Shown in pieces: positions 1,473-56,713 of a stretch of DNA of 64,000 nucleotides. The notes under the pieces were generated by a model. That model did no database searches and had not been told where the DNA came from. It saw only the letters and a list, made by a program, of their open reading frames with translations. Position numbers and translations under genes: made by a program. The stretch is from an uncultured Alphaproteobacteria bacterium (lineage in GTDB: Bacteria > Pseudomonadota > Alphaproteobacteria > SP197). Where the stretch lies: contig CALSLK010000003.1 in NCBI GenBank assembly GCA_943787175.1, positions 67,409-131,408 on the forward strand, given 5' to 3'. Each line of letters opens with the position of its first letter. Position 1 is the stretch's first letter.

Positions 1473-1515
1473 GTAAAAAAAAAAACGGGGCAGGGCGTTT
1501 CCACCCTGCCCCGAA
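1473..1515 (-). terminator. Rho-independent terminator downstream of actP
   Basis: On the minus strand a GC hairpin (CGGGGCAGGG-TGGAAAC-GCCCTGCCCCG) is followed by an 11-T run. It lies just past the end of the actP reading frames at 1533. Confidence 0.55.
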
Positions 1516-1532
1516 TGTCAGTTTCCGGCCAA

Positions 1533-3381
1533 CTAGTGGTTTTCGGCCAGGATCGTATCGCCTGTCGGGATACGGGTCTCGTCAACCATGGCCTGGATCT
1601 CTGCATCAGGCTCTGGCGTCATGAGCGACACCGCGACCATCGCGACCAGGGCTAACCGGCGCATGCCGATCATGCCGAACCGCAGGTGGTCGATGCCCAT
1701 CCATGAGCGGATCGCCACCGGTGTAGACGTAGTAGAGGTACGCCGAACCGGCGACCAAAGCCGAGCTGCCATGCCGGCTACCGCGCCCGCGTCGGTTCGC
1801 CCGTCTTCCACCAGATCGCCGAGGACCAGCGGGAAGAACAGCCCCGAACATGGCGAAGCAGAACGCCCAGGCCACCGCGCCCAGGATCCCGGTCAGCTTG
1901 CAGGGACTGGCAACCGCGCGCACGCCGCCGCCCCGATCACCAGCAGCAGGATACGGGCCACCATCAAGGCGCTGCTTCGTTTCCGCCTTGCGGGTCGATG
2001 ATCTTGTAGTAGAGATCGTGGCTCAGCGCGTTCGCGATCGCCAGCAGCAGGCCGTCGGCAGTCGACATGGCTGCTGCCATGCCACCGGCGGCGACAAGGC
2101 CGGAAATCACATACGGCAGACCGGCGATCTCTGGGGTCGCCAGCACGACAATGTCGGGCCGCATGAAGAACTCGTTGAGCTGAACCGTTCCGTTGCCGTT
2201 GGAGTCGACAATGCCGACCATCCCGACTTCCATCCAGTTCTGGATCCACTCCAGGCTCAGGACATGTTCGACCGATTGGCCGATGACCGCCGTTGCAAGG
2301 GTGGGATCAAGAAGCTGCAACTTCGTGAGCGTGGCAAGGGCCGGCGCCGTGAAGTACAGCAGGAAGATGAAGAACAGCGAAAAGGCCACCGACTTGCGTG
2401 CTGAACGCACAGACGGTGTCGTGAAGTAGCGCATGAGAATATGCGGCAGCGATGCCGTTCCAGCCATCATGCACAGGGCAAGTGTAACGAACTTCCACGA
2501 ATCAAACCCGCCCTGGGGGTCGAAATGCGGTGTTGTGAGAACCTTCAGGCTGCCCATAGCCTCCTGTGCGGCTGCAGCTGCTGGCTCTAGGCCGTATTCA
2601 GCTTGCAGTTCGGCGATGCGTTGTGCCGCCTCGCCATAAGTAAAATGCGGGACGATACCAAAGCCCTGAGCATTGGACATCCAGATGACCGGCACCAGAT
2701 AGGCGATGATCAGCACGATGTACTGGGCGACCTGGGTCCATGTCACGCCGCGCATACCACCCAGCATGGAGCAGAGCAGGATGCCCAGTAGTCCGAACCA
2801 CACACCAATCTCGAATGGAATGGCCAGAGCACGTGAGGCAATGGTGCCCGTGGCATTGATCTGCGCCGTCACATAGGTGAACGACGCAACCACCAGCACG
2901 ATTACGGCGCAAAGGCGCGCCATGTTGCCGCCATACCGGGTGCCGATGAAGTCCGGCACCGTGTAGCAGCCGAACTTGCGCAGGTACGGGGCCATCAACG
3001 CGTTCACCAGCACGTAACCGCCGGTCCAGCCGACGACGAAGCCCAGATATGCCGTGACCACCGAAATAGATGCCGCCGGCCAGCGCCACAAACGAGGCGC
3101 ACCGGACATCCAGTCCGCCGCCGTCGCCATGCCGTTGATACAGCGGGCGGTACTTCCCGGCCCGCGACGTAGTAGGCGCCCACCTCCATCGTCCGCGACA
3201 GCCAGCCGATGCCCGCGTAGATGACCAGGGTGAACAGCAGGAAGAGGATACCAATCAGACGCGCGCCGGCGCCAAAGGATTCCAGAACTGCCATGAGGGC
3301 GAAAAACGCGAGGAAACCTAGGGTGTACAGCGCATACACCTTACCCAGATTATCGATGAAACTTGAACTTTTGTTACTCAT
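1533..3381 (-). pseudogene. actP: Cation/acetate symporter ActP (sodium:solute symporter family), interrupted by at least two frame changes
   Basis: The N-terminus (MSNKSSSFIDNLGKVYALYTLGFLAFFALMAVLESFGAG...) lies in ORF 3004-3381. The core SSS-family body is in ORF 1964-3130 and the C-terminus in ORF 1533-1811, in three different frames. Either a pseudogene or indel errors. Confidence 0.7.
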
Positions 3382-3436
3382 GACGAGCCCTCCAACGATT
3401 CGCCGGCGTCGTATTCATCATCGATTTTGTCCTGGA

Positions 3437-3655
3437 TCATGTTTGAACAATGATCAGCAGAACAAAAACGATGAGCGAGCCTTGGACGATCATGTAATAG
3501 CCCAGTTCGAATCCAAGGAACGAAAAGGCGTCAAGTTCCTTGGCGAACCAAGGTACGATGAATCCAAAAGTGAACCAGATAGCAAGGACGATGTACGTCA
3601 AGCGTGACGTCTTCTTCCAATGGACTTTCCGCCTTGCGGCGTTGTCTTCCGACAT
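3437..3655 (-). CDS. DUF4212 small membrane protein, the usual partner of ActP-type symporters
   Basis: 72 aa with two TM helices, immediately upstream of and co-directional with actP. This pairing is conserved. Confidence 0.7.
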   Translation of the reverse strand: MSEDNAARRKVHWKKTSRLTYIVLAIWFTFGFIVPWFAKELDAFSFLGFELGYYMIVQGSLIVFVLLIIVQT

Positions 3656-3805
3656 GTCCGTCTCCTCCCCTCATTGATGACGCTGCCACATACTCCCTTT
3701 GCCAATTCTGCTAGGCGCCAGACCCCAGCCGACAGAATTAGATTGTGACAGTTGCAGGAACTATACTCGAAAAATGAAGTGTTTTGAAGCCATCGGAGCC
3801 GCGGG

Positions 3806-4461
3806 ATGATTGCCAGACTGCTCTCACGTCTGCCCGGACCACTTAGCTCTCTTGCTGTGCGGTTCCAGATGCAGCGCATTGACTCCACGGAAGCTCTTGC
3901 CGAGTTTGTGGGAACCCGTTCAGCGTATGTCACGCAAACGGCACTCTACGGCTATCTCAAAACCCGGATGGGCACACAGTTCACGCGCTACTTCGAGGAC
4001 GGCGTGTTCTCCGAAGCAATTCGTGGTGCAGCCGAGAAGCAGTTTCGGTCCGGTCTTTGTGACCTCGCCGTTTTTGCTGCGGCAACGGCAAACACGGGTC
4101 GTAATCTCTCCGATGATCAGGTTTCGGCGCTGGCCATGCATTGTTTCATTGAGGGACATCAGCGTGCTTGCCTGAAGGTGGCTCAACGGTGATCCCTGAA
4201 GATGTTCTGGGCGGATTCCAGACTCGTCTGGCGCATGCCGATTGGATCTGGGAAGCAGAAGGGCGTCACGCTTTTGCCCGTAGCGAGGCTGACTTGATCC
4301 GTAATGCCCCGGTGATCGATCAGTACAAGAAGGAAGATGAAGAGATCGTGACCAACTCCATCCGCTTCCGCTGGCGGGACATCAGGGAACAGCTGCGCAC
4401 CAGGATCGAAAGGGATGCGTTGTGTGAAGACTGGCGGTCTCTCGGCAACAAGACGGGCTGA
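3806..4461 (+). CDS. Hypothetical protein, two overlapping ORFs that may be one frameshifted gene
   Basis: ORFs 3806-4192 and 4168-4461 overlap by 24 nt in different frames. No recognisable family. Confidence 0.3.
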
Positions 4462-4477
4462 TGGAACGGAGTGTCTG

Positions 4478-5882
4478 ATGTCTCAGAGACAGCAACTCAG
4501 ACGATCCAATGCTCTTAAGGGCGTCCTGATCTGCATGGCGCTTGCTGCCCTGGCTTCCGGTATTCTGCTGATCCTGATCGTGGTCTCGTCCACTGCCGGA
4601 AATCGGAGTCATGTAACCGTGATCGCGGGGGGGCTGCATGATCGTTCTGATCGGTGCCTTCTGGTTTGCCATCCATCTTGTGAGAGGCTGGCAGCAAGAC
4701 CTGCAACGTCTCAGGGGAGCATTGTTACTGGCGCACGACCAGCCGGACTCCTTCAACGAACATGTGGTGCGCCTGGTTGAGAGTCAGGACCTGACGATGC
4801 TGGCAGAGACACTCGATCACATTCGGGCCCGCCGGCATGCCCGTCAGGTGGTGGCCGAAGAGCGCCTTGCTGCTGTGTTGGAGGCCATGCCAACCGCCAT
4901 CGTTGTCATCACCGGTCGCGGACTGGTCAGTCTGGTTGATGCCGCTGCAAAGCAGGTGTTGCCGTCCCAAGCCATTGCATCCGGCACGAGCATTTATGCC
5001 GCCTTGCGGCGCGAAAGCCTTGAGGCTGTGCTGCGGGACGCCGGCATGGGTCCTGGGCCGATCAAGGCCACGCTGACGACGACCGATGACCGCAAGCTCT
5101 CCGCGACGATTTCACGGTTGGGTGCAAGCGGTGGTTTTGTCCTGATCTTTGATGGCAACACCCAAGATGGATCTCCGGCAGCGCTCGAATATGACCTCGC
5201 GCTGCATGATGGTGTGCCCGAGGCAGGGCCCGCACATGCAGATACCACCCTCGAAGAGCTCCCGCTTCTTGCCTTGGATTGCGAAACCACCGGGCTTGAT
5301 CCTGCTGTGGATCGTGTGGTCTCGATTGGCGCTGTGCTGGCGCACGGCAGGCGTGTCTTTGTTCATGATAATCGCGACACCCTGGTGAAACCTGATGTTT
5401 CCATCCCGCCCAGTTCAACGGCGATCCACGGGATTGATGATGCCATGGTTGCTGGCGCCGGCGATGTTGCCGAAGAACTCCGGCAACTGGCGCAGATGGC
5501 TGCCGGACGGGTCGTTCTTGGACATAACATCGGCTTCGATCTGGCTGTTATGAGCGCAGAGGCCGCGCGCAACGGTGTTGTCTGGGAAACCCCGCTTGCC
5601 CTCGATACCAGCCAGCTTGTTGCAGCGTTGGAACCTGCCATGCAGCAGCTTGATCTTGACCGGGTGGCAGAACGCTTCGGCGTTGTGATTGCGGGCCGTC
5701 ACACCGCACTTGGTGATGCTCTTGTGGCTGCGGACCTGTTTTCGCGCCTGATACCGCTTCTGCATGACCGGGGTGTCAACACGCTGGGTGAAGCCTGGGC
5801 GTTTTCAGGCAAGGCCAAGGGGTTGCGCATGCGCCAGAAGCAGGCCGGATGGCACAGCGTTGGGGGAAGGGATGACGGCTGA
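4478..5882 (+). CDS. Membrane-anchored PAS-domain protein fused to a DEDDh (DnaQ/Pol III epsilon-like) 3'-5' exonuclease, probably frameshifted at a G7 run near 4628
   Basis: Exonuclease motifs are LALDCETTGLDP (Exo I), HNIGFDLAVM (Exo II) and HTALGDALVAADLF (Exo III). A PAS-like segment precedes them (LEAMPTAIVVITGRGLVSLVDAAAKQVL). Hydrophobic TM segments sit at the N-terminus. The first TM is in ORF 4415-4780 in another frame. Confidence 0.6.
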
Positions 5883-7033
5883 CCTTCTGGCGCGGATCGA
5901 TCCCTATCCCTATCGTCACAGGGTTCGTGAGGTGATGCGCAGCGAGCCGGTGTTCGTAGAAGCCGATATGTCCGTGGGTGAGGCCATTACGGTGATGATG
6001 TCGCGCAACATCTCGTCGGTTCTTGTCGCGTCGGGGCAGGGCACAGACGGCATAGGAATTGTGACCGAGCACGATGCCTTGCGGGCCATCGCTGGAGATG
6101 GCGAAAGCGGCCTTGCACGGCCATGTCGAGAGGTCATGTCGCACCCGCTTTTTCGTGTTTCTGCTGATGACTATCTCCACGTTGCCATCGGACGCATGGC
6201 AAGGCTTGGCCTTCGCCATCTCGTTGTCTGCGATGAAAAGGATGCGGTCTGCGGCATTGTGACCTCCCGCGCGCTGGTCAAACACCGATCGGTCCATGCG
6301 CTGATGATCGGTGATGAGTTACGTGCAGCAGGTTCCGTTGATGCACTAAAGGCTGCGCATGATCGGCTGGTGGGCATGGCTCAGGGCTTGCTTGGCGATC
6401 AGGTAACCGCATCGACCATTGCTGCCGTCATTGCCGGGTTTTATCGCGATCTCACCAGGCGAGCCATGGAGTTGGCCGAACAGGAGTGTGGCGTTAGCCT
6501 GCCGCCTGAATGTTGATATCTTCTTTGATCTGGTGCGGGTGCACGGAGACCGCGAGTTGGTCGATACCTTGCGTCAGCATGCTCTGGACGAGGCTGCCAA
6601 ACCCTTGTTGCCGCGAATGATGGCTGCTGAGGTCATGGATTATCGTCCGCCGTTGAGCCTCTTTGGACGGTTTCAACTTCAGAAGGGGCGTCTTGATCTC
6701 AAGATCGAGGGTCTCTTTCCGCTTGTGGCCGGCGCGCGTGCCATGGCGCTTGCGCATCGTGTGGAAGCTACGGGAACACGCGCAAGGCTGGCTGCCGTCG
6801 CTGAGCTTAGCTTGATGGGCTCAGGCGATCTTGAGCGGTTCGGAAAAGCACACGAACTGTTTCTGGAGTTGATCCTGCGCCAGCAGATCGAAGATATGGC
6901 CGCTGGGAAAACGCCGGGCTCACTGGTTGATGTCAGCGGACTACCGCGTGCAGCCCGACGACACCTGAAAGTGGCCTTGCGTGATATCGCACACCTGCCG
7001 CAGCTGGTGCTTGATGTCGCGGCCCGTGGCTGA
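5872..7033 (+). pseudogene. CBS-pair / DUF294 (putative nucleotidyltransferase) signalling protein, frame change near 6480-6516
   Basis: A CBS pair (VMRSEPVFVEADMSVGEAI..., LRHLVVCDEKDAVCGIVTSRAL) lies in frame 1. A DUF294_C-like C-terminal domain lies in frame 2. The nucleotidyltransferase motif region appears degraded. This is the classic neighbour of actP/exonuclease loci. Confidence 0.55.
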
Positions 7034-7082
7034 CCAGCGTCCTCTGTGGTAGGAGCCGCTGATGAAATCTGGAGATCAGTAG

Positions 7083-8504
7083 ATGTTTATCGATGGTGCC
7101 TGGCAGGAGATGGAACGCCGGTTTGATATCACCAATCCGGCCGATGGGTCCGTGCTGGAAAGTATTGGTGACGGCGGAGCAGAAGAGGCGACGCAGGCAG
7201 TTGAAGCCGCGCATGCGGCATTTGCCGGCTGGGCCGGAACAACGGCCTATGAGCGGGCTGCTATTCTTTCGCGTGCCCACAAGATCATGCTGGAGCGCCG
7301 CGACGAACTTGCCCGCACCATGACGCTCGAGCAGGGCAAGCCCCTGCGCGCGGCAACCCTTGAAGTGGGCTACGGGGCAGATTTTCTGTCGTGGTTTGCC
7401 GAAGAAGCCAAACGCATCGAAGGACGCACCATTCCCTCGGCCCGGCGCGACCAGCGTTTTCTGGCGATCCGTCAGCCGGTCGGTGTGGTCGCTGCCATCA
7501 CGCCGTGGAATTATCCGGTCTCGATGATCACGCGCAAGGTGGCTCCGGCATTGGCGGCAGGCTGTACGGTTGTCCTGAAACCCGCTGAAGCCACGCCGCT
7601 GACGGCCGTGGCGATGATGCGTGTGTTCGAGGATGCGGGGGTGCCCAAGGGTGTTGTGAACCTGGTGACCTGCAGCGATCCCCGCCCGGTGGGTGATGTC
7701 TTTGTGAATCATCCCAAGGTGCGCAAGCTGACGTTCACGGGCTCGACGGCGGTCGGCAAGATGCTGGCCGGCAAGGCTGCGGCCAACATGAAGCGGGTGT
7801 CCTGCGAGCTGGGAGGCCATGCGCCGTTCCTGGTGTTCGAGGATGCCGATCCCGTGCATGCCGCCAAGGGCGCGCAACTGGTGAAATTCCTCAACACGGG
7901 GCAGGCCTGCATCAGCCCAAACCGGATCTTCGTACATCGTGCCAATCTTGAGCCATTTGTGGCGACGCTGACCGAACGTGTCGCCAAACTGAAGGTTGGT
8001 AGTGGACTGGATGAAGGTGTTGCCATTGGCCCGCTGGTCAACGAAGCAGCGGTCGAAAAGATGTCCAGGCAGGTCGAAGACGCACGTGATCGCGGTGCCG
8101 GTGTCGCCTGTGGCGGCAGCCGACTCACTGATGGAGGCCTGGATCGCGGGCACTTTTATGCGCCGACAGTTCTGACCGACGTCACGCCTGACATGCTCAT
8201 CTATCGTGAAGAAACCTTTGGCCCTATCGCGCCAATCATTCCCTTCGAGGATGAATCCGAAGTGATCGCCATGGCCAACGACACCGAATACGGTCTGGCG
8301 GCCTATATCTACACCCGTGATATCGCGCGGGCGTTCCGCACATTCGAGGCACTCGACTTCGGGATCATCGGGATCAACGACATCAATCCGACCTCTGCGG
8401 CGGCACCCTTTGGCGGCATGAAAGATAGTGGGCTAGGGCGCGAAGGCTCCCATGAGGGGCTGGACGAGTATCTCGAAACCAAACTGGGCGGCTTTGCAAT
8501 CTGA
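7083..8504 (+). CDS. gabD: NAD(P)-dependent aldehyde dehydrogenase, succinate-semialdehyde dehydrogenase-like
   Basis: 473 aa with ALDH-family hallmarks: a catalytic Cys region (GQACISPNR) and a Glu region (VSCELGGHAPFLVF). The best fit is GabD-type SSADH. Confidence 0.75.
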   Translation: MFIDGAWQEMERRFDITNPADGSVLESIGDGGAEEATQAVEAAHAAFAGWAGTTAYERAAILSRAHKIMLERRDELARTMTLEQGKPLRAATLEVGYGADFLSWFAEEAKRIEGRTIPSARRDQRFLAIRQPVGVVAAITPWNYPVSMITRKVAPALAAGCTVVLKPAEATPLTAVAMMRVFEDAGVPKGVVNLVTCSDPRPVGDVFVNHPKVRKLTFTGSTAVGKMLAGKAAANMKRVSCELGGHAPFLVFEDADPVHAAKGAQLVKFLNTGQACISPNRIFVHRANLEPFVATLTERVAKLKVGSGLDEGVAIGPLVNEAAVEKMSRQVEDARDRGAGVACGGSRLTDGGLDRGHFYAPTVLTDVTPDMLIYREETFGPIAPIIPFEDESEVIAMANDTEYGLAAYIYTRDIARAFRTFEALDFGIIGINDINPTSAAAPFGGMKDSGLGREGSHEGLDEYLETKLGGFAI

Positions 8505-8926
8505 TGTCTGATCAAACCGTGTTTGTCCTCGACCCCAGATTGGAAGGTGATTCCGTTCCTGTTTGCGACCTTGGCCTCTGTACGGTGCGACTGATGAACG
8601 ATGCACGGTTTCCCTGGGTCATCCTGGTTCCACGCATCGCAGGCCTGGTCGAACTGATCGACCTTTCGGAAGCGGATCGCCGAACGGTGACCGATGAAAT
8701 CGACCGTGTGACACGTGCGTTATCATCGCACACCAGCGCCGAGAAGATGAATGTGGCTGCGTTGGGCAACATGGTCCGTCAGCTTCATGTGCACGTGATT
8801 GCGCGATTTGCTGGTGATGCGGCATGGCCGGGGCCGATCTGGGGTGTGGGAACGGCGCAGGCCTATGTCGAAGGTGACAGAATGGAACGGGTGGATGCTT
8901 TGAAAGCAGCGCTAATCGGCGCGTGA
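8504..8926 (+). CDS. HIT (histidine triad) family protein
   Basis: 140 aa with the HxHxHxx motif (QLHVHVIAR). Confidence 0.7.
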   Translation: MSDQTVFVLDPRLEGDSVPVCDLGLCTVRLMNDARFPWVILVPRIAGLVELIDLSEADRRTVTDEIDRVTRALSSHTSAEKMNVAALGNMVRQLHVHVIARFAGDAAWPGPIWGVGTAQAYVEGDRMERVDALKAALIGA

Positions 8927-8958
8927 TGCCCAGGTTGAATCCGGTTTAGGGTGGCTTC

Positions 8959-10563
8959 ATGAAATCGGAAAACGAATACGACTACATTATTGTCGGTGCG
9001 GGGTCGGCGGGTTGCGTGCTTGCCAATCGATTGTCTGAGGATCCCGATTGTCGCGTCCTGGTTCTTGAGGCCGGGGCAAAAGACTGGAGCCCGATGATCC
9101 GTATGCCAATCGGTGAAATCTTCACCGTGGGCAGCCGCTATGACTGGAAATTCGTGTCAGAGCCGGAACCCATGCTTGATGGTACCCGTGTGGGCCTGCC
9201 CCGTGGGCGTGTGCTGGGTGGGTCTTCGTCCATCAATGGTCAGCTCTACGTGCGTGGCCATGAACGTGATTATGACGAGTGGGCGCAGCTTGGCTGCAGG
9301 GGCTGGTCGTTTGATGATGTCTTGCCCTGCTTCAAGAAGTCAGAGCGCTGGAAGGGGCCTCAGAGCGAGCGGCGCGGCACCGATGGCCCCTTGCGAACGG
9401 CGTTGGGGCGCTATGACAATCCGCTCTACAGCGCCTTTCTGAAAGCCGGTCAGGAGATCGGCTATTCCCTGACGGAAGATTTCAACGGCGATGTGCAGGA
9501 AGGTTTTGGTCTTTCCCAATATACTCATGCGCACTGGTTCCCGCTGCGTCACTCCTCGGCCAACGCCTATCTACGTCCGGCCAAGCGGCGCCGCAATGTC
9601 ACGGTCCTGACGGATGCGCGGGCACTGAAGCTGATTCTGGAGGGTGACACCTGCAAGGGCGTGTTGTGCGATGTGCGCGGGGAGATCAAGACGCTGCGTG
9701 CGACGCGCGAGGTCGTTCTGGCAGCAGGTGCCTATCAGTCACCCCAGCTCCTGATGTTATCGGGGATCGGTGACCCCGATCATCTGCGCGAGCTTGGCAT
9801 TGACGTGACCTGCCCGCTGTCTGGTGTCGGTGCCAACCTTCAGGATCACTTTGGTTCGATGGTGCAGCATCGGTGTACCCAGCCGATTACCTATCATCGC
9901 CTGCGCAATCCCCTGAAATTGGCTGCAGCGGTGCTGCAACTGGGTTTGACACGCAGCGGTCCGCTTGCCGTATTCCCGATGAATGCACAGGCCTATGTGA
10001 AATCCGACCCTGCGCTGGAACGTCCAGATCTGCAGTTCTTCATGTTCCCGGTCGCAGTCCAGCCTGACAGTGATGATCTGCACTACTCTGGCTACAGCGG
10101 GTACAACATCCATTGGGCGATTCTGCGCCCACGGTCCATCGGCTCGGTCAGACTGCGTTCAGCGTCGCCCTATGATGCGCCGGTCATCCGGCACAATTAT
10201 CTGGCTGATCCCGAGGATCGCAGGCTCAACCGTGAGGCCTTCCACATTGCGCGCCGAATTCATGCCGCCAGTGCATTCGATGCATATCGGGGTGAAGAGG
10301 TTGATCCGGGGCCCGAATGCATCAGCGATGCTGACATTGACCGTCATGTCGCCCGGTTCCATTCGACCCATTACCACCCGGCAGGAACCTGCAAGATGGG
10401 GATCGACGACCATGCCGTGGTTGATCCAAAGCTCAAGGTGCGGGGAATCGAAGGACTGCGCGTTGTCGATGCCTCGATCATGCCGCGTCTGGTTGGTGGT
10501 AATACGAATGCACCAACCATGATGATCGGCGAGCGTGCTGCCGAACTGATTGCACAGGGCTGA
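8959..10563 (+). CDS. GMC family oxidoreductase (choline dehydrogenase-like)
   Basis: N-terminal FAD fold DYIIVGAGSAGCVLANRLSE, GMC signatures and a C-terminal HPAGTCKMG motif. 534 aa. Confidence 0.85.
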   Translation: MKSENEYDYIIVGAGSAGCVLANRLSEDPDCRVLVLEAGAKDWSPMIRMPIGEIFTVGSRYDWKFVSEPEPMLDGTRVGLPRGRVLGGSSSINGQLYVRGHERDYDEWAQLGCRGWSFDDVLPCFKKSERWKGPQSERRGTDGPLRTALGRYDNPLYSAFLKAGQEIGYSLTEDFNGDVQEGFGLSQYTHAHWFPLRHSSANAYLRPAKRRRNVTVLTDARALKLILEGDTCKGVLCDVRGEIKTLRATREVVLAAGAYQSPQLLMLSGIGDPDHLRELGIDVTCPLSGVGANLQDHFGSMVQHRCTQPITYHRLRNPLKLAAAVLQLGLTRSGPLAVFPMNAQAYVKSDPALERPDLQFFMFPVAVQPDSDDLHYSGYSGYNIHWAILRPRSIGSVRLRSASPYDAPVIRHNYLADPEDRRLNREAFHIARRIHAASAFDAYRGEEVDPGPECISDADIDRHVARFHSTHYHPAGTCKMGIDDHAVVDPKLKVRGIEGLRVVDASIMPRLVGGNTNAPTMMIGERAAELIAQG

Positions 10564-10630
10564 TACGACCGTTGAACTGGGGTGTGGTTTTGATGCAAAA
10601 AGGCTTCTGGCAGGCAGGTGCGATTCCCAG

Positions 10631-11461
10631 ATGAGTTTGAAAGATCTCAGTTACGTCCGGCATGAATATCCCGCTTTGCAGCGTGTGATGTTCCGCATGC
10701 TGGAGCTGATAAGCGGTCAGGCGCGTTTCCTGCGCACCTATGGTGATCACTTTGATCCCTGGTTGGACGCGATGCGCAGGCGCGAGCCCTGGGCGTGGAA
10801 TGACGGCCTCGACCGTCTGGGCATCGAACGCCGCATTCATGGTGAGGCCTGGCCTGTCGATGTTCCCAAGGGTCAGCCGATCGTGATGGTGGCCAATCAT
10901 CCCTTCGGCGTGCTCGACGGAACCACGATGCTGGCCCTGGCAGAACATCTGGAGCGCCCCATCAAGGTTATGATCGACAAGGCTTTGCTGCGCTTTGAGC
11001 CGCTGCGCGAATACGCCCTGCCGGTTGATTTCACGGAAACACAGGAAGCCAGGCAGACGAATGTGGAGAGCCGGCGCGAAGCCCGCGCTTGCCTCAGTCG
11101 TGGCGAGACCATCATTGTCTTTCCTGCTGCCGGCGTTGCAATAGCGCGCAACCCCTTTGGTCCGTCTGTCGATCAGCCCTGGGGTCCGCTGACGGCCAGC
11201 CTGATTCTCGATACCCAGGCAACCACGGTGCCGGTGTTCTTTCCCGGGCGGTGCAGCACAATGTTTCACCTGTTTGGCCGCATCAAACTCGACCTGCGTC
11301 GAACGCTGATGGCCAGTGAATTTTTCCGGCGCTGTGGCACGCCCATCGACCTTCATGTCGGCAAGCCGATCCCGGCAGGCGAGCTTGAGGCGATGGACGA
11401 TCGAACTGCGATCATGCAGCACCTCCGTGCGGTCGTGCATCAGCTCGGTGGTTTGCGATAA
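10631..11461 (+). CDS. Lysophospholipid / PlsC-family acyltransferase (hemolysin-like)
   Basis: HX4D acyltransferase motif (VANHPFGVLDG) and a PAAG-like motif (VFPAAGVAIA). Confidence 0.6.
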   Translation: MSLKDLSYVRHEYPALQRVMFRMLELISGQARFLRTYGDHFDPWLDAMRRREPWAWNDGLDRLGIERRIHGEAWPVDVPKGQPIVMVANHPFGVLDGTTMLALAEHLERPIKVMIDKALLRFEPLREYALPVDFTETQEARQTNVESRREARACLSRGETIIVFPAAGVAIARNPFGPSVDQPWGPLTASLILDTQATTVPVFFPGRCSTMFHLFGRIKLDLRRTLMASEFFRRCGTPIDLHVGKPIPAGELEAMDDRTAIMQHLRAVVHQLGGLR

Positions 11462-11474
11462 TTCCATCTGCTGG

Positions 11475-11500
11475 CGCTGCATTAATACAGCGCCTGATGC
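11475..11500. repeat. Inverted repeat CTGCAT-N14-ATGCAG in the intergenic region upstream of the sigma-54 promoter
   Basis: A perfect 6-bp inverted repeat seen directly in the sequence. Candidate upstream activator site or weak terminator. Confidence 0.3.
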
Positions 11501-11608
11501 AGAAATTCATCGATCGTTGACGTTCTGAAGCACACACAAATCTGGCGTGTTTTCCTAAGTTGTTGAAACACAAGAGAAATGTGAGTGGTTCCCAAGGGCG
11601 CGGACTCT

Positions 11609-11624
11609 TGGCATGCTGCTTGCT
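11609..11624 (+). promoter_or_regulatory. Sigma-54 (RpoN) -24/-12 promoter TGGCAT-GCTGC-TTGCT
   Basis: Matches the TGGCAC-N5-TTGCW consensus with exact GG-N10-GC spacing, about 65 bp upstream of the first GS-like gene. A GAFTGA-containing enhancer-binding protein is encoded in the same gene string. Confidence 0.6.
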
Positions 11625-11689
11625 GTCTAATTGTACAACAAGCGCTAGCCGGCAATGTATCGGAGCGCAGGGAATGAGGGGCTGAGGGC

Positions 11690-13048
11690 ATGGCAGCGAA
11701 GAAGTCTGCGCGCAAAACGGCGGAAAAAGGTGCGGTCGCACGGCTGCGCAAGCAGGGCGTGAAAACCGTCCACGTTGCGATCCCTGATATGGATGGAAGT
11801 CTGCGTGAACGGCGCCTGGCGCTGGACGACGTGGAAACGGCATTCGGGCCCGGCGGAACCTTCGTCAACGTGATCCACAAGTGGGATACCGGTGAAAGTG
11901 TGATTGGCGAACCACCGTTCATCGGCGAGGCCACGTCGCTCGACTGGAACAGCGTGCGCGACTATCCCTTTGAAGACGATTCAGCCTTTGTCTTTGCAGA
12001 CTTTGCCGGTCCGTCGGCAGCGCTCAGCCCCCGCGAACTTCTCAAAACCCAGATTGCGCGTGCTGCAAAGATGGGTTTTGCAGTCAAGGCTGCCATGGAA
12101 TTCGAGTTTCATGTGTTGGATGAAACAGCCGAAGCCTGTCGCGCCAAGGGCTTCGAGAATGTTGACATGTTTGCCCCCGACAACCGGTGTTGGTCGACAC
12201 AGTCTGCGGCAATCTATGCCGATTATGTGGCCGATCTTGATGCTGTCCTGAAACATGCAGGTGTTGGCCTGTTCGGACTGGGCCTGGAGCTTGGGCCCGG
12301 CTGTTTCGAAGCGACCCTGCGCGCGACCGATCCGCTGCGTGCCGCCGACGATGCGGTGCTGTTCAAGACTTTCACCAAAGCGTTTTCGCGCAGGCTGGGT
12401 CTGACAGCGACCTTCATGGCCCAGCTCAGTGCCAACCATGCCGGTCTTTCCGGCCACGTTCATTTGTCACTGGCTGATGCCAGATCCGGCAAACCGGTTT
12501 TCCACGATGCAAAGGATGCCGATGGCATGAGTGCGACCATGCGTCATGCAGTTGGTGGCATTGTTGAACTGGCACCTGAAGCCCTGGCCATGGCTGCTCA
12601 TACCGCAAATGCTTATCGTCGGCTGACGCCGGGAAACTGGGCGCCCAAGACCGCGACCTGGGCCGTGCAGAACTATGCGGCTGCGGTGCGCGCCGTTCCG
12701 GCCCCTGCCAAGCTGGCGCGCTTGGAATTCCGATTGCCGGCTTCCGATACCAACCCCTATCTGGCATTGGCCCTGACGCTGGGGTCTGCGCTGCATGGTA
12801 TTGAGACCAAGGCCAAACTGCCTGCACCCATCACACGTGGTGGTCCCGATGAAACGCCGGAAGGCGTTCCGGGCCTTCCTCATGACTTGTTGGAAGCTGC
12901 GGACCGCCTGGAGGCCTGTAAGCCCGCACGCGCCATGTTCGGCGACGTGTTCATCGATCATTTTGTCGCCACACGCCGCCACGAAGAAGCGGTCATTCGC
13001 AAACATGTCAGCGCCTTTGAAAGGGCGCGTTACATCGAGGCCGTCTGA
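11690..13048 (+). CDS. Glutamine synthetase family protein (gamma-glutamyl-amine ligase-like), paralog 1
   Basis: 452 aa with a GS catalytic-domain pattern (AMEFEFHVLDE, GLELGPGCFEATL, NAYRRLTPGNWAPK). Lacks the GlnA adenylylation features. Confidence 0.8.
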   Translation: MAAKKSARKTAEKGAVARLRKQGVKTVHVAIPDMDGSLRERRLALDDVETAFGPGGTFVNVIHKWDTGESVIGEPPFIGEATSLDWNSVRDYPFEDDSAFVFADFAGPSAALSPRELLKTQIARAAKMGFAVKAAMEFEFHVLDETAEACRAKGFENVDMFAPDNRCWSTQSAAIYADYVADLDAVLKHAGVGLFGLGLELGPGCFEATLRATDPLRAADDAVLFKTFTKAFSRRLGLTATFMAQLSANHAGLSGHVHLSLADARSGKPVFHDAKDADGMSATMRHAVGGIVELAPEALAMAAHTANAYRRLTPGNWAPKTATWAVQNYAAAVRAVPAPAKLARLEFRLPASDTNPYLALALTLGSALHGIETKAKLPAPITRGGPDETPEGVPGLPHDLLEAADRLEACKPARAMFGDVFIDHFVATRRHEEAVIRKHVSAFERARYIEAV

Positions 13049-13065
13049 CGGTTTCTCGGGGGAGA

Positions 13066-14541
13066 TTGAACTTGACCAAAGATGTTGATGCCTATGCCGA
13101 GGCACCCGGCCGCGCGGATCTGATCAAGCAGGTTCGCGCCAAGATCGATGAGCTGGGAATTGATTTCGTTTACTATCAGTACATCTCGATCACCGGACGC
13201 ATCATGGGCAAGGCGGTGCCTGCGCCCCATTGGGAAACGATTGCCATGAAGGGCATTCAGACCTGGGTCGGTGGCCTCACCAACGTCTTGCCGAACCGTG
13301 CAGGAACCCTGCTCGGGTTTGATTCCAACGCCCATGAACTGGTCGCGCTGCCGGATCCGGAAACGTTCTGTCAGCTTCCCTGGAACAAGCGGACCGCGCG
13401 GGTTTATTGCACCGTCTTCAACGGTCGCGAGGAACCTGAAAACCCCGGCGCGTTCATGGATGAAGATTGCCGAGGCAATTTGCGGCGCGTGAACCAGAAG
13501 TTCATGGACGATCATGACGGTCTGCACATGCGCCACGGTTGCGAGCCCGAGATGGCTTGGCTGTACAAGCCTGAGGACGGGAAGTTGCAGGGTGGGCCGA
13601 CCAAGCCGTTGGCCTATCACATCGATCAGTTCGAAGAGCTTTCCAGCGTCTACATGAAGGTCATCGACTACGGTCAGGCCATGGGGCTCGACATGATCCA
13701 GGGCGATCACGAAGATGCGCCTGGCCAGCTGGAGCTCAACTTCACCTATGACGAAGCCCTGCGCACGGCAGATCGCCTGACGACCTATCGTCAGATCTGC
13801 GCCCAGGTCGCACGTGAAGAAGGCCTGATCGCCTGCTTCATGTCCAAGCCGTTCCTTGGTGTCACGGCCAATGGTTGCCATCACAACATCTCGTTGTGGC
13901 GCGGTGGTGAGGGTGAAGTCGTTTCGCATGTTGATGAGCCACGTCCGGGGATGGATGGCGTATTCGAACATCGTGTGGGCGGCGATAACCTGTTCTACAG
14001 CGGCCCCGACGACTGGATGCCAGGGCCAACCGGGCTCCAGGCCATCGGTGGCATCATGGAGCATCTCCCGGCTCTGACCGCGATTGGGTCATCGACCGTG
14101 AATTCCTATCGCCGCATGCTGGATCTTGGCATGTGGGCGCCGGTCTATGCCGATTGGGGTTTCCAGAACCGCACCACTGCGCTGCGTGTTTCCGCGCCGG
14201 GCCGCCTTGAGTACCGCGCGGTTGATTCCATGGTGAACCCGTACCTGATGGCCGCAACGCTGATCGGTGCCATGGACGATGGGATCAAACGCAACATTGA
14301 TCCCGGTGAACCGGAACAGCGCAACATCTATGACGCCATGGAAGCGGGCAAGGAAGTCAAACGCCTGCCCAAGTACTTTGGTGACGCGCTTGATGCGCTG
14401 GCTGCCGACGAGGTCGTGAAATCTGCGATGCCAGGCGGGCTCTACGATATCTATGACGAGTACAAGCGTGACGAATGGGATCGTTTCAATGCCGAGGTAA
14501 GCAGTTGGGATGTCGAAAAATATCTCGACTGCCTGCCATAA
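13066..14541 (+). CDS. Glutamine synthetase family protein (GlnA-like N-terminal beta-grasp plus catalytic domain), paralog 2
   Basis: 491 aa with GS-family motifs (HGCEPEMAWLY, QLELNFTYDEAL, NSYRRMLDLGMWAPVYADWGFQNR). TTG start with a GGGGGAG Shine-Dalgarno upstream. Confidence 0.8.
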   Translation: MNLTKDVDAYAEAPGRADLIKQVRAKIDELGIDFVYYQYISITGRIMGKAVPAPHWETIAMKGIQTWVGGLTNVLPNRAGTLLGFDSNAHELVALPDPETFCQLPWNKRTARVYCTVFNGREEPENPGAFMDEDCRGNLRRVNQKFMDDHDGLHMRHGCEPEMAWLYKPEDGKLQGGPTKPLAYHIDQFEELSSVYMKVIDYGQAMGLDMIQGDHEDAPGQLELNFTYDEALRTADRLTTYRQICAQVAREEGLIACFMSKPFLGVTANGCHHNISLWRGGEGEVVSHVDEPRPGMDGVFEHRVGGDNLFYSGPDDWMPGPTGLQAIGGIMEHLPALTAIGSSTVNSYRRMLDLGMWAPVYADWGFQNRTTALRVSAPGRLEYRAVDSMVNPYLMAATLIGAMDDGIKRNIDPGEPEQRNIYDAMEAGKEVKRLPKYFGDALDALAADEVVKSAMPGGLYDIYDEYKRDEWDRFNAEVSSWDVEKYLDCLP

Positions 14542-14553
14542 GAGGAGGACCGA

Positions 14554-15420
14554 ATGTTCGAACTGACCAAGGATCAGGTCACCAGTTTTCGGGACGACGG
14601 TTACGTCTTCGCCCAGAACATGGTCGATGAGTCGACCATTGAGACAGCGCACGAGAGCTTTGAGCGCATGTTCCGAGGTGAATTTTCGACCGGGGTTTTA
14701 CCCGATGAGGTGAACTGGCAGGAGGGCAAGAGCGACCCTTCGCTGACACGCCAGATCTGCTGCGGTTGGAGAGGCGATTATGACATTGCGCGCACAGTGC
14801 TTCGCGCTGATATCGGTCGTGCCTGTGCAACGCTTGCAGGCTGGCCGGGCGCCCGTGTCTTTGTCGATAATGTGCTTTGGAAACCGGCGGGAACGCGCTC
14901 ACTGGGTCTCCATCAGGATGCAGCCTATCTGCCCTGGATGAATCCTCAGGAAATGGTGTCCTGTTGGATCGCATTGGATGATACGACCGCCAATGGCGGG
15001 ACCATGGAAGTCGTGAAGGGCTCGCACAAGTGGGCTGTTTCCAAGCCCGAAGGCGAGTTTCATGGCCCCGAGGACTATCAAAAACAGATGCGTCTTGCTG
15101 CTGCCAACGAGGGTGTCGAAGATCCTGAGGTCGTTCCCATTGTGGTGAAGAAGGGTTCGGGATCCTTCCATCATGGTCGTACCTGGCATGGATCGGGCCC
15201 CAACGAGTCTGGAAATCCGCGTCGCTCACTGGTGGTGCACTGCATTTCATCGGAGACTCAGTTCGTTCCCGAACACATCGGTATTGGGGTTGGGCCGGTG
15301 TACGGTCGGTACATGCGCCGGGATGGCAACCCGGTGATGGACGAGGCCTATTTTCCGATCCTGTGGACCCAGGACGGTTATCGTACGCCTTGGGTCGATG
15401 ACTATATGGCTGCTGCCTGA
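14554..15420 (+). CDS. Phytanoyl-CoA dioxygenase (PhyH) family Fe(II)/2-oxoglutarate-dependent oxygenase
   Basis: HxD facial-triad motif (LGLHQDAAY) and distal His (GSFHHGRTWHGSGPN). 288 aa. Confidence 0.8.
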   Translation: MFELTKDQVTSFRDDGYVFAQNMVDESTIETAHESFERMFRGEFSTGVLPDEVNWQEGKSDPSLTRQICCGWRGDYDIARTVLRADIGRACATLAGWPGARVFVDNVLWKPAGTRSLGLHQDAAYLPWMNPQEMVSCWIALDDTTANGGTMEVVKGSHKWAVSKPEGEFHGPEDYQKQMRLAAANEGVEDPEVVPIVVKKGSGSFHHGRTWHGSGPNESGNPRRSLVVHCISSETQFVPEHIGIGVGPVYGRYMRRDGNPVMDEAYFPILWTQDGYRTPWVDDYMAAA

Positions 15421-16295
15421 TGACGAATGCAGGCATCACCGCTGACACCGTGACTCACGCGGGGCATGATGCCCTCGACAAAGCGTCACGTGCCGAGCTT
15501 GATGTTCTGCGCGGCATTCTCGAAACCTCGCGCGATGCCTGCTGGTGTATCGAATACGATGAGCCGGTCGATATGACCGCACCAGAGCCTGAGATTTTGC
15601 GGCAGTTTTTCGAGAACGTATCGTTCTGGCGTCTCTGCAACGACGCGATGGCAAAGCTCTACAAGTTGCCGGCGGGCCTCGATTTCAATGAGCAGTCCGT
15701 GCGGTTCTACTTTCCGCGTAACGGCGACAACGAGAACTTTGTGCGCCAACTGATACGCGCAAAATTCAACATGGATGACGTGCCCTCGGTTGATAAACGC
15801 CACGACGGCAGCGTGATGCATGCTCAAAACGATGTTCGTGCCGACATTCGTGATGGAGACCTGCACAGGCTGTGGGGCACGGTGCGTGATATCAGCGCCT
15901 TCAAACATGCCGAACAGGAGCTGACACGCCAGCTTGGTGCCATGCAGGATGTTCTGACTGCCTTGCCAGATCCGGTGCTGGTGATTGATGGTGAAGGTGT
16001 TGTCGAAGCAGCCAATCCGGCGCTTGAGGCATGCCTTGGGTTCGATCTCGATACGCTCCTTGGGCGTCACCTTGATGACTTGATTGATTCGAATGGAGGC
16101 TTTGCAGGCCTGGCATCGCGGCTGCGTCGGCTGGGAAGCCCGCTGCGCTGCGATGTTTCCATGGTCACGACTGCGGGTCATCGACGGGATGCCGAAATGA
16201 ACCTGGCACGGTCCAGCGATGGGGATGGTGCGGTGCGGTTTGTCGCAAGCCTGCGTTTGCGCGATGACCATCCATCGGTGGCGGCAATGTCATGA
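15420..16295 (+). CDS. PAS-domain sensor protein, possibly the N-terminal part of the downstream enhancer-binding protein
   Basis: PAS-like folds and no output domain. The stop overlaps the next start (ATGA). Confidence 0.55.
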   Translation: MTNAGITADTVTHAGHDALDKASRAELDVLRGILETSRDACWCIEYDEPVDMTAPEPEILRQFFENVSFWRLCNDAMAKLYKLPAGLDFNEQSVRFYFPRNGDNENFVRQLIRAKFNMDDVPSVDKRHDGSVMHAQNDVRADIRDGDLHRLWGTVRDISAFKHAEQELTRQLGAMQDVLTALPDPVLVIDGEGVVEAANPALEACLGFDLDTLLGRHLDDLIDSNGGFAGLASRLRRLGSPLRCDVSMVTTAGHRRDAEMNLARSSDGDGAVRFVASLRLRDDHPSVAAMS

Positions 16296-48547: not shown

Positions 48548-48848
48548 TTTGAAACCGGGCCGGAACCTGCCCACAGTGGAAGGGGTGAAGCAAGTATGTC
48601 CGAGGGCAAAGGTGGTGAGCGATAGCAAGGCCGATAAGTCGGCTGATTCAGGGGGCTGACAATCCGACTGACCTGAAGGCTCAGCGGCTGGCAGAAGCCC
48701 TGCGTGCAAACCTGAAACGGCGCAAATCCCAGGCGCGGTGATCGCACGCAACCAGATGACGGCGATCAACAGGGCCAAGACTAGATTTCTGGCCTGGTTT
48801 TTGCTTGTCTAAAGCTGATGTCCAAGCGGTTTTCGCCAGTTTGTTACG

Positions 48849-52128: not shown

Positions 52129-53482
52129 ATGGCCACGAAAACCCCGCAAAATGAGCAGGCTTTGGAGCAACAACGCCAGCAGGCGCGTGCGGCGGCGGCC
52201 AACGGTGATCATCAAACTGCATTGAAGTTGTTTCGTGCCGCTGTAGAAGCGGCATCTGGGGACTGGACCTGCCATGTTGATCTGGCGCGTGAATTGCGTT
52301 TGCTGGGATACCTGCAAGACACGATCAACAGTTTGAGGCAGGCGATTGCTCTGGCGCCCCGGCCAGATCGAGTTACGCTGTGAGCTCATCGATGTTCTGG
52401 GCAAACTCGGCCGTGAACGTGTGATTGCAGCCGAATGCGAAGAACTCCTCAAGCTGGTTCACAACCATCCCGGCGTTCTGCTCCAGGTTGCCCTGGCGTT
52501 CGAGGAGTCGGACCAGATCGACGCCAGCCTGATGGCCCTGCGGCGCCTGATCGCGTTGCAGCCCGACCATTTCGATGCCCTGCAACATTTGCGGCGGCTG
52601 CAGACCAAACGCATTCCGCCGTGGCATTTCGCCATGATGAATGATGAACCGCGCAACCGCGCCTATGAAGCAGCCCTGCGGCGGGCCGTTACTCCCGACA
52701 CCCACGTATTCGAAATCGGTACCGGTTCGAGCATTCTTTCCATGATGGCGGCAAGGGCCGGCGCAGCGCGCGTTACGACCTGTGAGGCCAATACCCAGAT
52801 CGCCGCGGTCGCGCAGCAGATCGTCAAGGACAACGGCTATGACGACATCATTACCGTCATTCCACGCCCCAGTTGGAAAATCGACGTTGAGAAAGACCTT
52901 GGCGGCAAGGCCGATCTTTTTGTTGCCGAGATCCTGAGCGATACCCTGCTTGACGAAGGTATCCTGCGCATCACCGACCAGGCACGCTGTGACTTGCTGA
53001 AGCCTGGCGCGCAGCTCATTCCCCACGGCGTGTCGGCAATGGCATGTCTGGTCGGGGGAGAAGCGCTAGCCTCCACCACGAAGGTTACGGAAGCGGCCGG
53101 TTTCAATCTGTCTGCGTTCAACCGCTATATTCCGGCCTCGCTGTCCATCAACTCCGATAGCCGTGAGCTCCTGACCCTGAGCGACGATATCGAAGTGTTC
53201 CGGTTCGACCTGGACCAGGAACTGCCCAAGCCCGAGCAGCGGGATATCACATGTCAGGCACGCGAGGACGGGCTATGCATCGGCGTCCTGCAATGGGTTC
53301 GCCTCTATATGGATGAAGAAACCATCTTCGAGAACCGACCGGCTGATCGGTTTGCGCCTTCGGCATGGCGTCAGCGCCTGTTTCCGTTTGCCGAGCCGAT
53401 CACCGTCAAAAAGGGTGAACAGGTCGATTTTCGCGCTTCGCACAACATCGCCAGCCTTGCTTTTGATCGGAGAGTGGTTTGA
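52129..53482 (+). pseudogene. TPR-repeat N-terminus fused to a class I SAM-dependent (protein arginine methyltransferase-like) methyltransferase, frame change at a C4/G run near 52350
   Basis: TPR-like N-terminus in frame 1. SAM motif I (VFEIGTGSSILSMMAARAGA) in frame 2. The overlap of 52346-52383 suggests a single-base indel. Confidence 0.55.
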
Positions 53483-54057
53483 GCGATGTCCGGCCACTGA
53501 TTCTGGCTTCCCAATCGCCGCGTCGCCTCGACTTGCTGGCCCAGATTGGCATCACACCGGATTCTGTTGTGCCTGCCGAGCTGGATGAATCACCGCTGAA
53601 AAACGAGGCGCCCGGTCAGCTTGCTCGACGCCTGGCACAGGCCAAGGCGCAAGCCGTCGCGGTAAGTCGCACCGATGCCGCGGTCATCGGCGCCGACACC
53701 GTGGTGGCCTGTGGCAGACGGATTCTCGCCAAACCCGCCGACGCTGCAGAGGCCAGACGGTTTCTGACATTGCTGTCGGGAAGGCGTCATGTCGTGCACG
53801 GCGGATTGTGTGTGATTGTGGATGGTCGTGCTCACGTGCGTCATGTCGCGACGCGCGTGGGCGTGAAGCGTCTGTCGGATCAGGAAATCGACTGGTACCT
53901 CGACAGCGGTGAATGGCATGGCAAGGCAGGCGGTTACGCCATCCAGGGCCGCGCCGCTGCCTTCGTGGACCTCGTCAACGGCTCCTACAGCAATGTCGTG
54001 GGCCTGCCGCTTCACGAGACCGCGCAACTGCTTGGCGGGCTGGGTCTGCTGCGATGA
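53479..54057 (+). CDS. maf: Maf-like nucleoside triphosphate pyrophosphatase (septum formation protein Maf)
   Basis: Maf-family motifs (LILASQSPRR, GADTVV, SNVVGLPL). Followed by an rng-like gene, as in the E. coli yhdE-rng order. Confidence 0.85.
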   Translation: MSDVRPLILASQSPRRLDLLAQIGITPDSVVPAELDESPLKNEAPGQLARRLAQAKAQAVAVSRTDAAVIGADTVVACGRRILAKPADAAEARRFLTLLSGRRHVVHGGLCVIVDGRAHVRHVATRVGVKRLSDQEIDWYLDSGEWHGKAGGYAIQGRAAAFVDLVNGSYSNVVGLPLHETAQLLGGLGLLR

Positions 54058-56341: not shown

Positions 56342-56713
56342 CAGGTGAGATGCGCTGCGCGTCTGCAACAAGCCATAAATGAGCAGAACCTTTCAAAGCC
56401 GGAGAGACTGGGGAATTCCGCCCCTCTCTGTTCCGGCCAGGGGGTTTGCTGTGGAGAGAGATGCGAACCGGTGTTCGGCGCCTCAGTAAAACAATCTTCG
56501 ACAATGTGAGAGTGCCGCTCTGAGCCTAGGTCAACCCCACTATCACCACCTACATTAATGCCCGATACGCCGACCCAAAACCATGTTCGCAAGGCTAGAT
56601 CAAGGTAACCATTGTCTGCCGTCAGCGCCTTTGGGACAGATTGAGTGGTTTTCATAAGGGAGTTTTCTGGCTCATCGTAGTGACCGTAGGGAACGAAGAT
56701 GAGGCAGAAAACC

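Follow-up and report, generated by a model that had tools for sequence, protein, structure and literature searches.

A 64,000-nucleotide stretch of DNA from an uncultured alphaproteobacterium (assembly GCA_943787175.1, contig CALSLK010000003.1), referred to here as the window, carries between positions 1473 and 7033 a symporter operon and, divergent from it, an operon that encodes a DEDDh-type exonuclease and a protein joining a pair of CBS domains to a DUF294 nucleotidyltransferase (NTase). The locus is probably an ordinary copy, typical of the species, of a conserved and widespread module; the assembly that shows it is error-prone, and one deletion of 266 base pairs (bp) in the locus is real. 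The organism has ∼59% GC, and among the matches listed in a scan of genome contigs the nearest named ones are metagenome-assembled genomes of Rhodospirillales/Rhodospirillaceae. The comparison draws on 15 same-species contigs from JGI, ENA and Logan (L002, L003 and L085–L097), each spanning part of the locus, which were found via cluster members of the exonuclease P0001 (P0124, P0125, P0122 and P0128). Intact genes for the 607-amino-acid (aa) and 87–92-aa symporter subunits, a 190–219-aa conserved protein, the 465–467-aa exonuclease and the 475-aa CBS-DUF294 protein occur in these contigs and in two syntenic relatives, L001 (58% identity, 3.75-Mb genome) and L004 (63%), which keep both the gene order and the architecture. 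Among the same-species contigs, L086 has the whole module intact, and L088–L090 and L092–L094 supply intact copies of the genes that they cover.

The layout was drawn from a listing of open reading frames (ORFs), Pfam and NCBIfam scans, and orthologue-guided tblastn. The large symporter subunit, of the SSF family, lies on the minus strand at ∼1536–3381 in at least three frames, and the frameshifted DUF4212 small subunit at 3402–3655 (PF13937, E 9e-18). Across a divergent intergenic region of 150 nucleotides (nt; 3656–3805), the plus-strand operon opens with a frameshifted, conserved 218-aa gene (3806–4461), continues with the exonuclease gene (4478–5882), which is frameshifted at a run of seven Gs and open over ORF 4638–5882 (414 aa), and ends with the CBS-DUF294 gene (5872–7033), which overlaps the end of the exonuclease gene by 11 nt and is probably translationally coupled to it. 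A first-pass annotation, made from the letters of the window alone, had described this neighbourhood of DUF4212 and symporter genes beside a divergent exonuclease and CBS-DUF294 gene, and both Pfam scans and the synteny in L001 and L004 confirm it. The 218-aa gene was missing from its inventory.

A 266-bp deletion in the CBS-DUF294 gene

The CBS-DUF294 gene is split at 6505/6506 into two frames. Its N-terminal part (5872–6505) holds the CBS pair at ∼5923–6290, matched by PF00571 in two stretches (E 1.1e-22), and then the first ∼40 positions of the NTase domain. The C-terminal part (6506–7033), out of frame with it, is DUF294_C (PF10335 on ORF 6419–7033, 118.8 bits, E 2.2e-34), and tblastn maps orthologue residues 289–475 to this segment. 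The DUF294 NTase profile is matched in the window over positions 5–45 of 138 only, at 18.5 bits against a cut-off of 21. By comparison, the intact partner in this species, L001 and L004 has 475 aa and consists of the CBS pair, DUF294 and DUF294_C.

The deletion at 6505/6506 accounts for the gap: residues 212–300 are lost, including the GSAGRGE...DQD motif (LGSAGRGETLLSGDQ(D)NAI), and the frame is shifted. From 6506 to 15616 the window is 100.000% identical to L086 12294–21404, and L086 12028–12293 is missing from it. An identical junction is present in L085 (JGI 3300028844), in which every other module gene is intact, and L002, L087 and L096, which come from three further samples, break off precisely at the last base shared before the junction. 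Such contig ends are the signature of a graph branch, with both alleles coexisting. Because the same junction recurs in the independent JGI contig and three more contigs stop at it, the deletion is, judged from these sequences, a real allele segregating in the population. It is flanked by no direct repeats beyond 0–1 nt. The degraded nucleotidyltransferase motif of the first-pass annotation thus reflects damage that is real, with a clean deletion and not degradation as its cause.

The GSxGRxE...DQDN motif is kept in every DUF294 gene found across 80+ loci. Within the species, L088–L094 read DQD, and L086 reads DQG around its positions 12090–12100. L086 is the only full-length DUF294 allele on the strain background of the window, and its DQG would be a second, independent lesion of the catalytic motif in this population. 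The idea that every same-species haplotype has one partner inactivated was rejected, since L092–L094 combine full-length DUF294 and DQD with a run of six Gs (G6) in the exonuclease gene.

A cyclic-nucleotide (cNMP)-binding domain was found neither in the window fragments nor in intact orthologues of 475–509 aa. Its absence had been noted before and put down to decay; the absence stands, and decay does not explain it, as the intact 475-aa orthologues lack the domain too. CBS-DUF294 proteins of this kind (∼475–510 aa) are encoded immediately after the exonuclease in loci of Rhodospirillaceae, Ferrovibrio and betaproteobacteria, and cNMP-containing forms of 606–683 aa occur in L008, L017 and L057.

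Two known systems are close. Proteins of the COG2905 type (Price et al. 2016, bioRxiv 10.1101/072470) share the CBS pair, DUF294 and DUF294_C, the adjacent DEDDh exonuclease and a neighbourhood of DUF4212 and a VC_2705-family symporter. The known form has a cNMP-binding domain, whereas the 475-aa partner of this clade does not; in addition, the exonuclease here has two transmembrane (TM) helices and a PAS domain, the 218-aa gene heads the operon, and the NTase core is deleted in the window. GlnD and GlnE likewise place a Pol-beta-type NTase before a helical substrate-binding domain of the KNTase_C clan, and DUF294_C is grouped with GlnD_UR_UTase in a table of Anantharaman et al. 2013 (PMC3710099), among helical domains C-terminal to Pol-beta-type NTases. 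However, GlnD and GlnE nucleotidylylate PII and glutamine synthetase and have their own removing activity, whereas the putative remover here would be a separate DEDDh exonuclease.

Frameshifts and divergent patches

To the left of 6506, the isolated homopolymer changes relative to L086 are a missing T at 3442 (T3 versus T4), which shifts the DUF4212 frame, a missing C at 4167 (C versus CC), which shifts the frame of the 218-aa gene, and G7 versus G6 at 4627. All other differences from L086 in this part belong to two patches in the symporter gene and one length change in the T tail of a terminator. Over 2.7 kb the window and L002 differ by 0 substitutions and 2 indels. None of the other same-species contigs covering each site carries the 1-bp lesions of the window.

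A control region was taken from a distant part of the window, where same-strain sequence was reached via a Maf protein. Between 47473 and 56612 the window differs from L098 by no substitution and by nine single-base insertions in the window, mostly one extra base in a homopolymer (at 48570, 48614, 48651, 48737, 48830, 52357, 54678, 55182 and 55420). Neither L098 nor L099 has any of the nine, and L101 and L103 lack the four that they cover. These insertions split the gene of RNase G (rng; 388 aa elsewhere) into 53913–54683 and 54598–55194 and truncate a PrmA-like gene at 52346–53482. Across the compared regions, insertions in the window make up 35 of the 37 single-base indel columns. Sequence comparison thus marks the nine insertions, ∼45 kb from the module, as almost certainly technical. 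The 1-bp frameshifts of the module look technical as well, of the same kind (homopolymer ±1, insertion-biased), because they are private to the window, biased towards insertion, set in a background of zero substitutions and similar to the errors in the control region. The symporter gene, reported earlier as broken into three frames, is broken in this assembly and very probably not in the organism.

The two patches are of a different character. Relative to L085 and L086, patch A (1644–1991, minus strand) has ∼33 substitutions and 20 single-base insertions, and patch B (2936–3214, minus strand) has ∼34 substitutions and 5 single-base insertions; the 944 bp between them are 100% identical to both contigs. 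With the inserted bases stripped, 51 of the 67 symporter-gene substitutions in both patches fall on third codon positions, and with the insertions removed 18 of 608 residues change, mostly conservatively. The substitutions (∼10%) mostly run from AT to GC, giving a local GC content of 0.656 versus ∼0.59 elsewhere. The third-position bias and conservative changes indicate that the patches therefore stem from a real, functional, higher-GC allele. No donor was found among L001, L004 and all same-species contigs, the best reaching 85–87%. The patches are most simply explained by a consensus that switched, within a conserved gene, to a few noisy, low-coverage reads of a related organism.

Several observations pull against a largely technical view of the locus. 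The technical origin of each indel is read from sequence comparison; the lesions are concentrated in the module, affecting each of its genes and none in the next 9 kb, and real co-decay would look alike; and the patches, with their third-codon periodicity, come from a real divergent allele and are not explained by simple read error. Genuine pseudogenisation of the whole module, in which the 266-bp deletion disabled the regulator and the remaining genes then decayed, would fit at least one lesion in every module gene between intact flanks (the PNPOx-like and 123-aa genes to the left; Aldedh, HIT and GMC oxidoreductase to the right). It would also fit a deletion that is itself real, and a 414-aa product identical to that of the window (P0127) is on record from an NCBI/ENA contig. 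We nonetheless hold such decay to be quite improbable: the absence of substitutions against same-strain contigs outside the two patches is incompatible with a time-dependent process; 26 of the 28 module indel columns (terminator-tail change excluded) are insertions, opposite to the usual bacterial deletion bias; private insertions of the same type lie in rng and the PrmA-like gene 45 kb away; and L085 combines the same deletion with otherwise intact genes. For the patches, real recombination or gene-conversion imports from a higher-GC relative, or from a decayed paralogue, would explain the third-position substitutions, the mostly conservative changes and the GC enrichment. This is rather unlikely, as 25 single-base insertions that a functional donor would not have coincide with the patches, the allele appears in no other contig of the species or its sister species, the window assembly demonstrably makes insertion errors, and a switch to low-coverage related reads accounts for substitutions and insertions at once.

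The membrane-anchored PAS-DEDDh exonuclease

A G run of six puts the start of the exonuclease gene at 4478 and gives a product of 467 aa containing two TM helices, and P0001/P0124 match this repaired product with 100% identity over its full length. The N-terminal extension of ∼200 aa that the first-pass annotation described is present, although the G7 frameshift and true start were missed. The description of that extension as membrane-spanning and PAS-like, ahead of a complete DEDDh module, is borne out by hydropathy, AlphaFold modelling, PF00929 and the invariant catalytic residues. Hydropathy gives exactly two TM segments, with centres at residues 20–33 and 53–62, joined by a short loop and flanked on both sides by basic residues. 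Because of the short loop and basic flanks, the positive-inside rule would place the PAS and exonuclease domains in the cytoplasm.

The DEDDh domain, a predicted 3′–5′ exonuclease of the DnaQ/RNase T type (5262–5843, plus strand), matches RNase_T (PF00929) at profile positions 2–164 of 164 (95.8 bits versus a cut-off of 24, E 5.4e-27). Residues D288, E290, D375, H429 and D434 (488-aa numbering), all found in the window ORF, do not vary among 25 homologues; they are the D and E of DCETTGL, the D of NIGFD, and the H and D of GRHTALGD. The 25-homologue alignment also keeps two N-terminal hydrophobic helices, an RLRG-containing helix, a 'VVVT..GLVSLVN..A......GTS.FAAL.R' block and an 'LALHD' linker. 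An AlphaFold2 model built from this alignment (predicted local distance difference test, pLDDT, 86.9) has two long helices, a signalling helix, a PAS-type sheet and the DEDDh domain, the last with pLDDT >90.

In the PAS-like domain (4896–5150, plus strand), which comes after the long signalling helix, helices flank a sheet of five strands. In the model its strands span 161–165, 170–174, 216–222, 227–234 and 241–245 and its helices 176–211, at pLDDT ∼84–95 (488-aa numbering). On the homologous segment, PF00989 matches 12 of the 25 homologues (best E 7.6e-6) and PF13188 matches 4, and no Pfam PAS family matches the window exonuclease itself at E ≤ 1e-2.

Foldseek returned the exonuclease domains of PolC and DinG as best matches, followed by DnaQ, RNase T and TREX1, the exonuclease domain dominating the matches. 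The fold and all five catalytic residues are shared with these proteins (E 1e-9 to 1e-12), and the TM-score (template-modelling score) relative to the target is ∼0.85 for stand-alone DnaQ domains. Unlike them, the exonuclease here is membrane-anchored and PAS-fused, lacks a polymerase or helicase domain, and has an NTase as its genomic partner.

How typical this architecture is was gauged by a database search with the product repaired to G6, which gave 841 homologues at E ≤ 1e-3 among 8000 scored candidates. The best 120 of the 841 are all 417–510 aa long except three shorter ones (279–402 aa), and most cover >80% of the query. The N-terminal module alone (window 4638–5240) retrieved 123 representatives of 50%-identity clusters, ∼95 of them 430–500 aa long and matched at residues ∼50–250. 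The combination of two TM helices, PAS and DEDDh domains is the rule in this alphaproteobacterial clade.

Larger forms also exist. The betaproteobacterial exonucleases of L015 (6501–8648), L044 (6501–8666) and L058 (6657–8786) have ∼709–721 aa, of which ∼500 aa form an N-terminal region. This region is sensor-like in L015 and L044, where it opens, by eye, with hydrophobic TM-like segments and has a segment like the PAS-like block; Pfam gave no match on that of L044, the one scanned.

The first-pass annotation had called the exonuclease unusual, a sensor-fused variant of a usual ∼210-aa soluble form whose partner lost its cNMP domain through decay. Some loci, among them Ferrovibrio L010, L013 and L018, do have a short exonuclease of ∼245–290 aa beside DUF294, and DUF294 proteins with a cNMP-binding domain do exist. 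Even so, such a reading is very hard to credit: long exonucleases are what this clade normally has, and others too; the cNMP-less CBS-DUF294 protein is the regular partner directly downstream; and most of a set of 80 loci, taken from GTDB species representatives by means of exonuclease motifs and including betaproteobacterial ones, have exonuclease ORFs of ∼700–800 aa by a generous ORF-length estimate, with real sensor-like N-terminal regions of ∼500 aa in L015 and L044, the two that were read.

The G run itself (4627–4633, plus strand) encodes Ala-Gly-Gly between TM1 and TM2. Among 16 sequences it is G6 in 11 same-species contigs, G7 in the window, G10 in L088 and L090, and G11 in L089; L091 begins inside the tract, at G10 or longer. 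Expanded tracts are out of frame and yield 414-aa gene calls (P0125), and an in-frame ATG four bases past the tract is a possible start for a one-TM form of 414 aa. The G10 and G11 contigs form one strain cluster that shares ∼98–99% identity with the window, and coverage is ∼4x in some of the assemblies. The G7 of the window is, by sequence comparison, probably a homopolymer miscall. The tract might instead be a phase-variation switch, with the full two-TM exonuclease in one state and the 414-aa one-TM form, or no protein, in the other. Frame-changing lengths of 6, 7, 10, 11 and at least 10 in a coding sequence of one species would suit a switch, as would the heterogeneity within a sample that the start of L091 inside the tract suggests, and the downstream ATG, for which the G run is a possible Shine-Dalgarno-like element. 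A switch is still doubtful, since the G7 is probably a miscall like the nine control insertions, and one expansion event plus length miscalls would account for G10 and G11, which come partly from neighbouring ENA analyses. Moreover, no in-frame expanded allele (G9 or G12) was present among the sequences compared, and the tract is absent from sister species (P0002 reads AGI and P0004 SGL at this position).

The 218-aa gene

The first gene of the exonuclease operon encodes a protein with 310 homologues at 42–77% identity, several of them on the same contigs as exonuclease homologues. Its strongly conserved motifs are TRSAYVAQTSLYGYLKTRMGT and NSIRFRWRDVREQLRKRI, and no Pfam or NCBIfam family matches it. 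An AlphaFold model of the protein is all-alpha (pLDDT 87.7; predicted template-modelling score, pTM, 0.84), and a fold search of the PDB with this model gave no match (best E 1.1). Among the fetched loci the gene is present only in L001, L004 and L060, and an intact same-species copy lies at L086 9328–9984. The gene is restricted to this clade, where its product is likely a third component of the exonuclease/DUF294 system.

The symporter and its small subunit

The first-pass annotation took the symporter for the acetate permease ActP, in the company of YjcH. Neither identity holds. The intact same-species large subunit reaches 117.4 bits against a cut-off of 1099 on TIGR02711 and 149.2 against 750 on NF006903, and the sole matches of the small protein are DUF4212 (PF13937) and TIGR03647, in place of the DUF485 family of YjcH. 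The models that fit are TIGR03648 (the VC_2705 family; 676.7 bits versus a cut-off of 320.75 for the intact L086 large subunit) and TIGR03647 (81.6 bits versus 26.05 for the small subunit). In the window, tblastn with the L001 orthologue recovers large-subunit residues 1–79, 82–467 and 470–607 in three frames. The DUF4212 subunit has 92 aa when intact, and the two subunit genes adjoin, overlapping by 4 nt in L086.

As in the E. coli acs-yjcH-actP locus, an SSF-family monocarboxylate-type symporter has a small membrane protein gene directly upstream; the families of both subunits differ from those of E. coli. No acs gene was found in the flanks examined, nor a second copy of the symporter within the window. 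DUF4212 and its symporter are required for the use of D,L-lactate or D-alanine (Price et al. 2016, bioRxiv 10.1101/072470). The system here is a two-subunit Na+/solute symporter whose substrate is probably a small organic acid.

The symporter operon is framed by putative signals. A sigma-70-like promoter match (consensus match only) lies on the minus strand at 3788–3760. A strong intrinsic terminator follows the 3′ end of the large-subunit gene (1486–1513, minus strand; 12-bp stem with 10 GC pairs and a T10 tail); the tail corresponds to a plus-strand poly-A run at ∼1475–1485 and differs by one base from L085 and L086.

Exonuclease-DUF294 pairing and a possible function

In 66 of the 80 loci DUF294 lies within 8 kb of the exonuclease, and in 21 it is directly downstream. 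Four of these 21 are single-chain exonuclease-CBS-DUF294 fusions of ∼700 aa (L014 4064–6211, L028, L041 and L060 7959–10088). Because such fusions exist, the exonuclease and DUF294 protein appear to act as one unit (Rosetta-stone evidence). An SSF symporter is nearby in 47 of the 80 loci, with DUF4212 in 23, and the best inference is that the exonuclease-DUF294 pair regulates the adjacent symporter.

How it might do so can be sketched. The exonuclease and NTase would form an antagonistic pair acting on one nucleotide-bearing substrate, for which we would favour an RNA 3′ end, that of a regulatory or leader transcript from the symporter operon, in analogy to the CCA-adding enzyme versus RNase T. 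Drawn by that analogy, the RNA version of a writer/eraser mechanism is a tentative possibility; protein nucleotidylylation of the GlnD/GlnE kind or turnover of a nucleotide messenger would be alternatives. The CBS pair would gate activity in response to ligands or the adenylate state, and the cytoplasmic, membrane-tethered PAS domain in response to the state of the membrane or transporter; together the exonuclease and NTase would set symporter expression. On this view, the allele with the 266-bp deletion would represent natural loss of function in the regulator.

The leaders upstream of DUF4212 in L004, L001, L010 and L018 have a GC-rich hairpin 10–30 nt before a strong ribosome-binding site of the GGGGAG type, followed in L004 by a U run. 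A TIGR03647 riboswitch candidate has been described directly upstream of DUF4212 small-subunit genes, with a proposed role in translation control (Stav et al. 2019, PMC6429828); it had no Rfam match in the window or in eight related loci, and to regard it as the RNA target of the NTase/exonuclease pair is speculation.

This sketch has its own weak points. We infer both the substrate and the writer/eraser mechanism, and NTases of the GlnD/GlnE type modify proteins, not RNA. Rfam scans of the window leader found no regulatory RNA family. The sentence on COG2905 cofitness in Price et al. (bioRxiv 10.1101/072470) is ambiguous as to which of two genes is meant, and the literature found on DUF294/COG2905 and on DUF4212 with the exonuclease comprises only that cofitness note, a HEPN survey and the riboswitch-candidate paper. 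The fullest version would have a membrane-coupled writer/eraser pair, acting on an RNA 3′ end or a nucleotide signal, tune the symporter together with the 218-aa protein, with the PAS domain reading transporter or membrane status and with loss-of-function alleles (the 266-bp deletion, DQG and the poly-G expansions) of either partner kept in wild populations as standing or phase variation in how nutrient uptake is regulated. As a whole, this picture is improbable.

Flanking genes

Intact genes border the module on both sides. On the minus strand these are a PNPOx-like gene (377–1015) and a gene for a 123-aa membrane protein (1072–1443); on the plus strand, genes for Aldedh, HIT and GMC oxidoreductase follow from 7083. 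In two related records the corresponding genes are in pieces: Aldedh and GMC oxidoreductase are called as small fragments of 71, 89 and 95 aa at L001 10860–12521, and at L092 6332–7883 the GMC oxidoreductase is in two parts of 427 and 55 aa. These may be further pseudogenes or assembly errors of those records.

In the distant control region, the alignment of the window with the same-strain contig L098 ends at window position 56612, just past an integrase-like fragment (Arm-DNA-bind_3) in L098. Beyond this point L098 carries hemP, a TonB receptor and HemS. Position ∼56612 (L098 8324–8860) may be the boundary of a strain-specific island.

Implications

A cluster of 'pseudogenes' confined to one module looked biological and dissolved on comparison with independent same-strain assemblies. 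Any 'pseudogene' in the assembly of this window needs independent confirmation. What emerges is a family with four exonuclease architectures: a short soluble form, a TM-PAS form, a form of ∼715 aa with a larger sensor region, and an exonuclease-DUF294 fusion. The module has been catalogued and is functionally uncharacterised; its single-chain fusions, third partner and natural loss-of-function alleles make the function of the exonuclease-DUF294 pair more testable.

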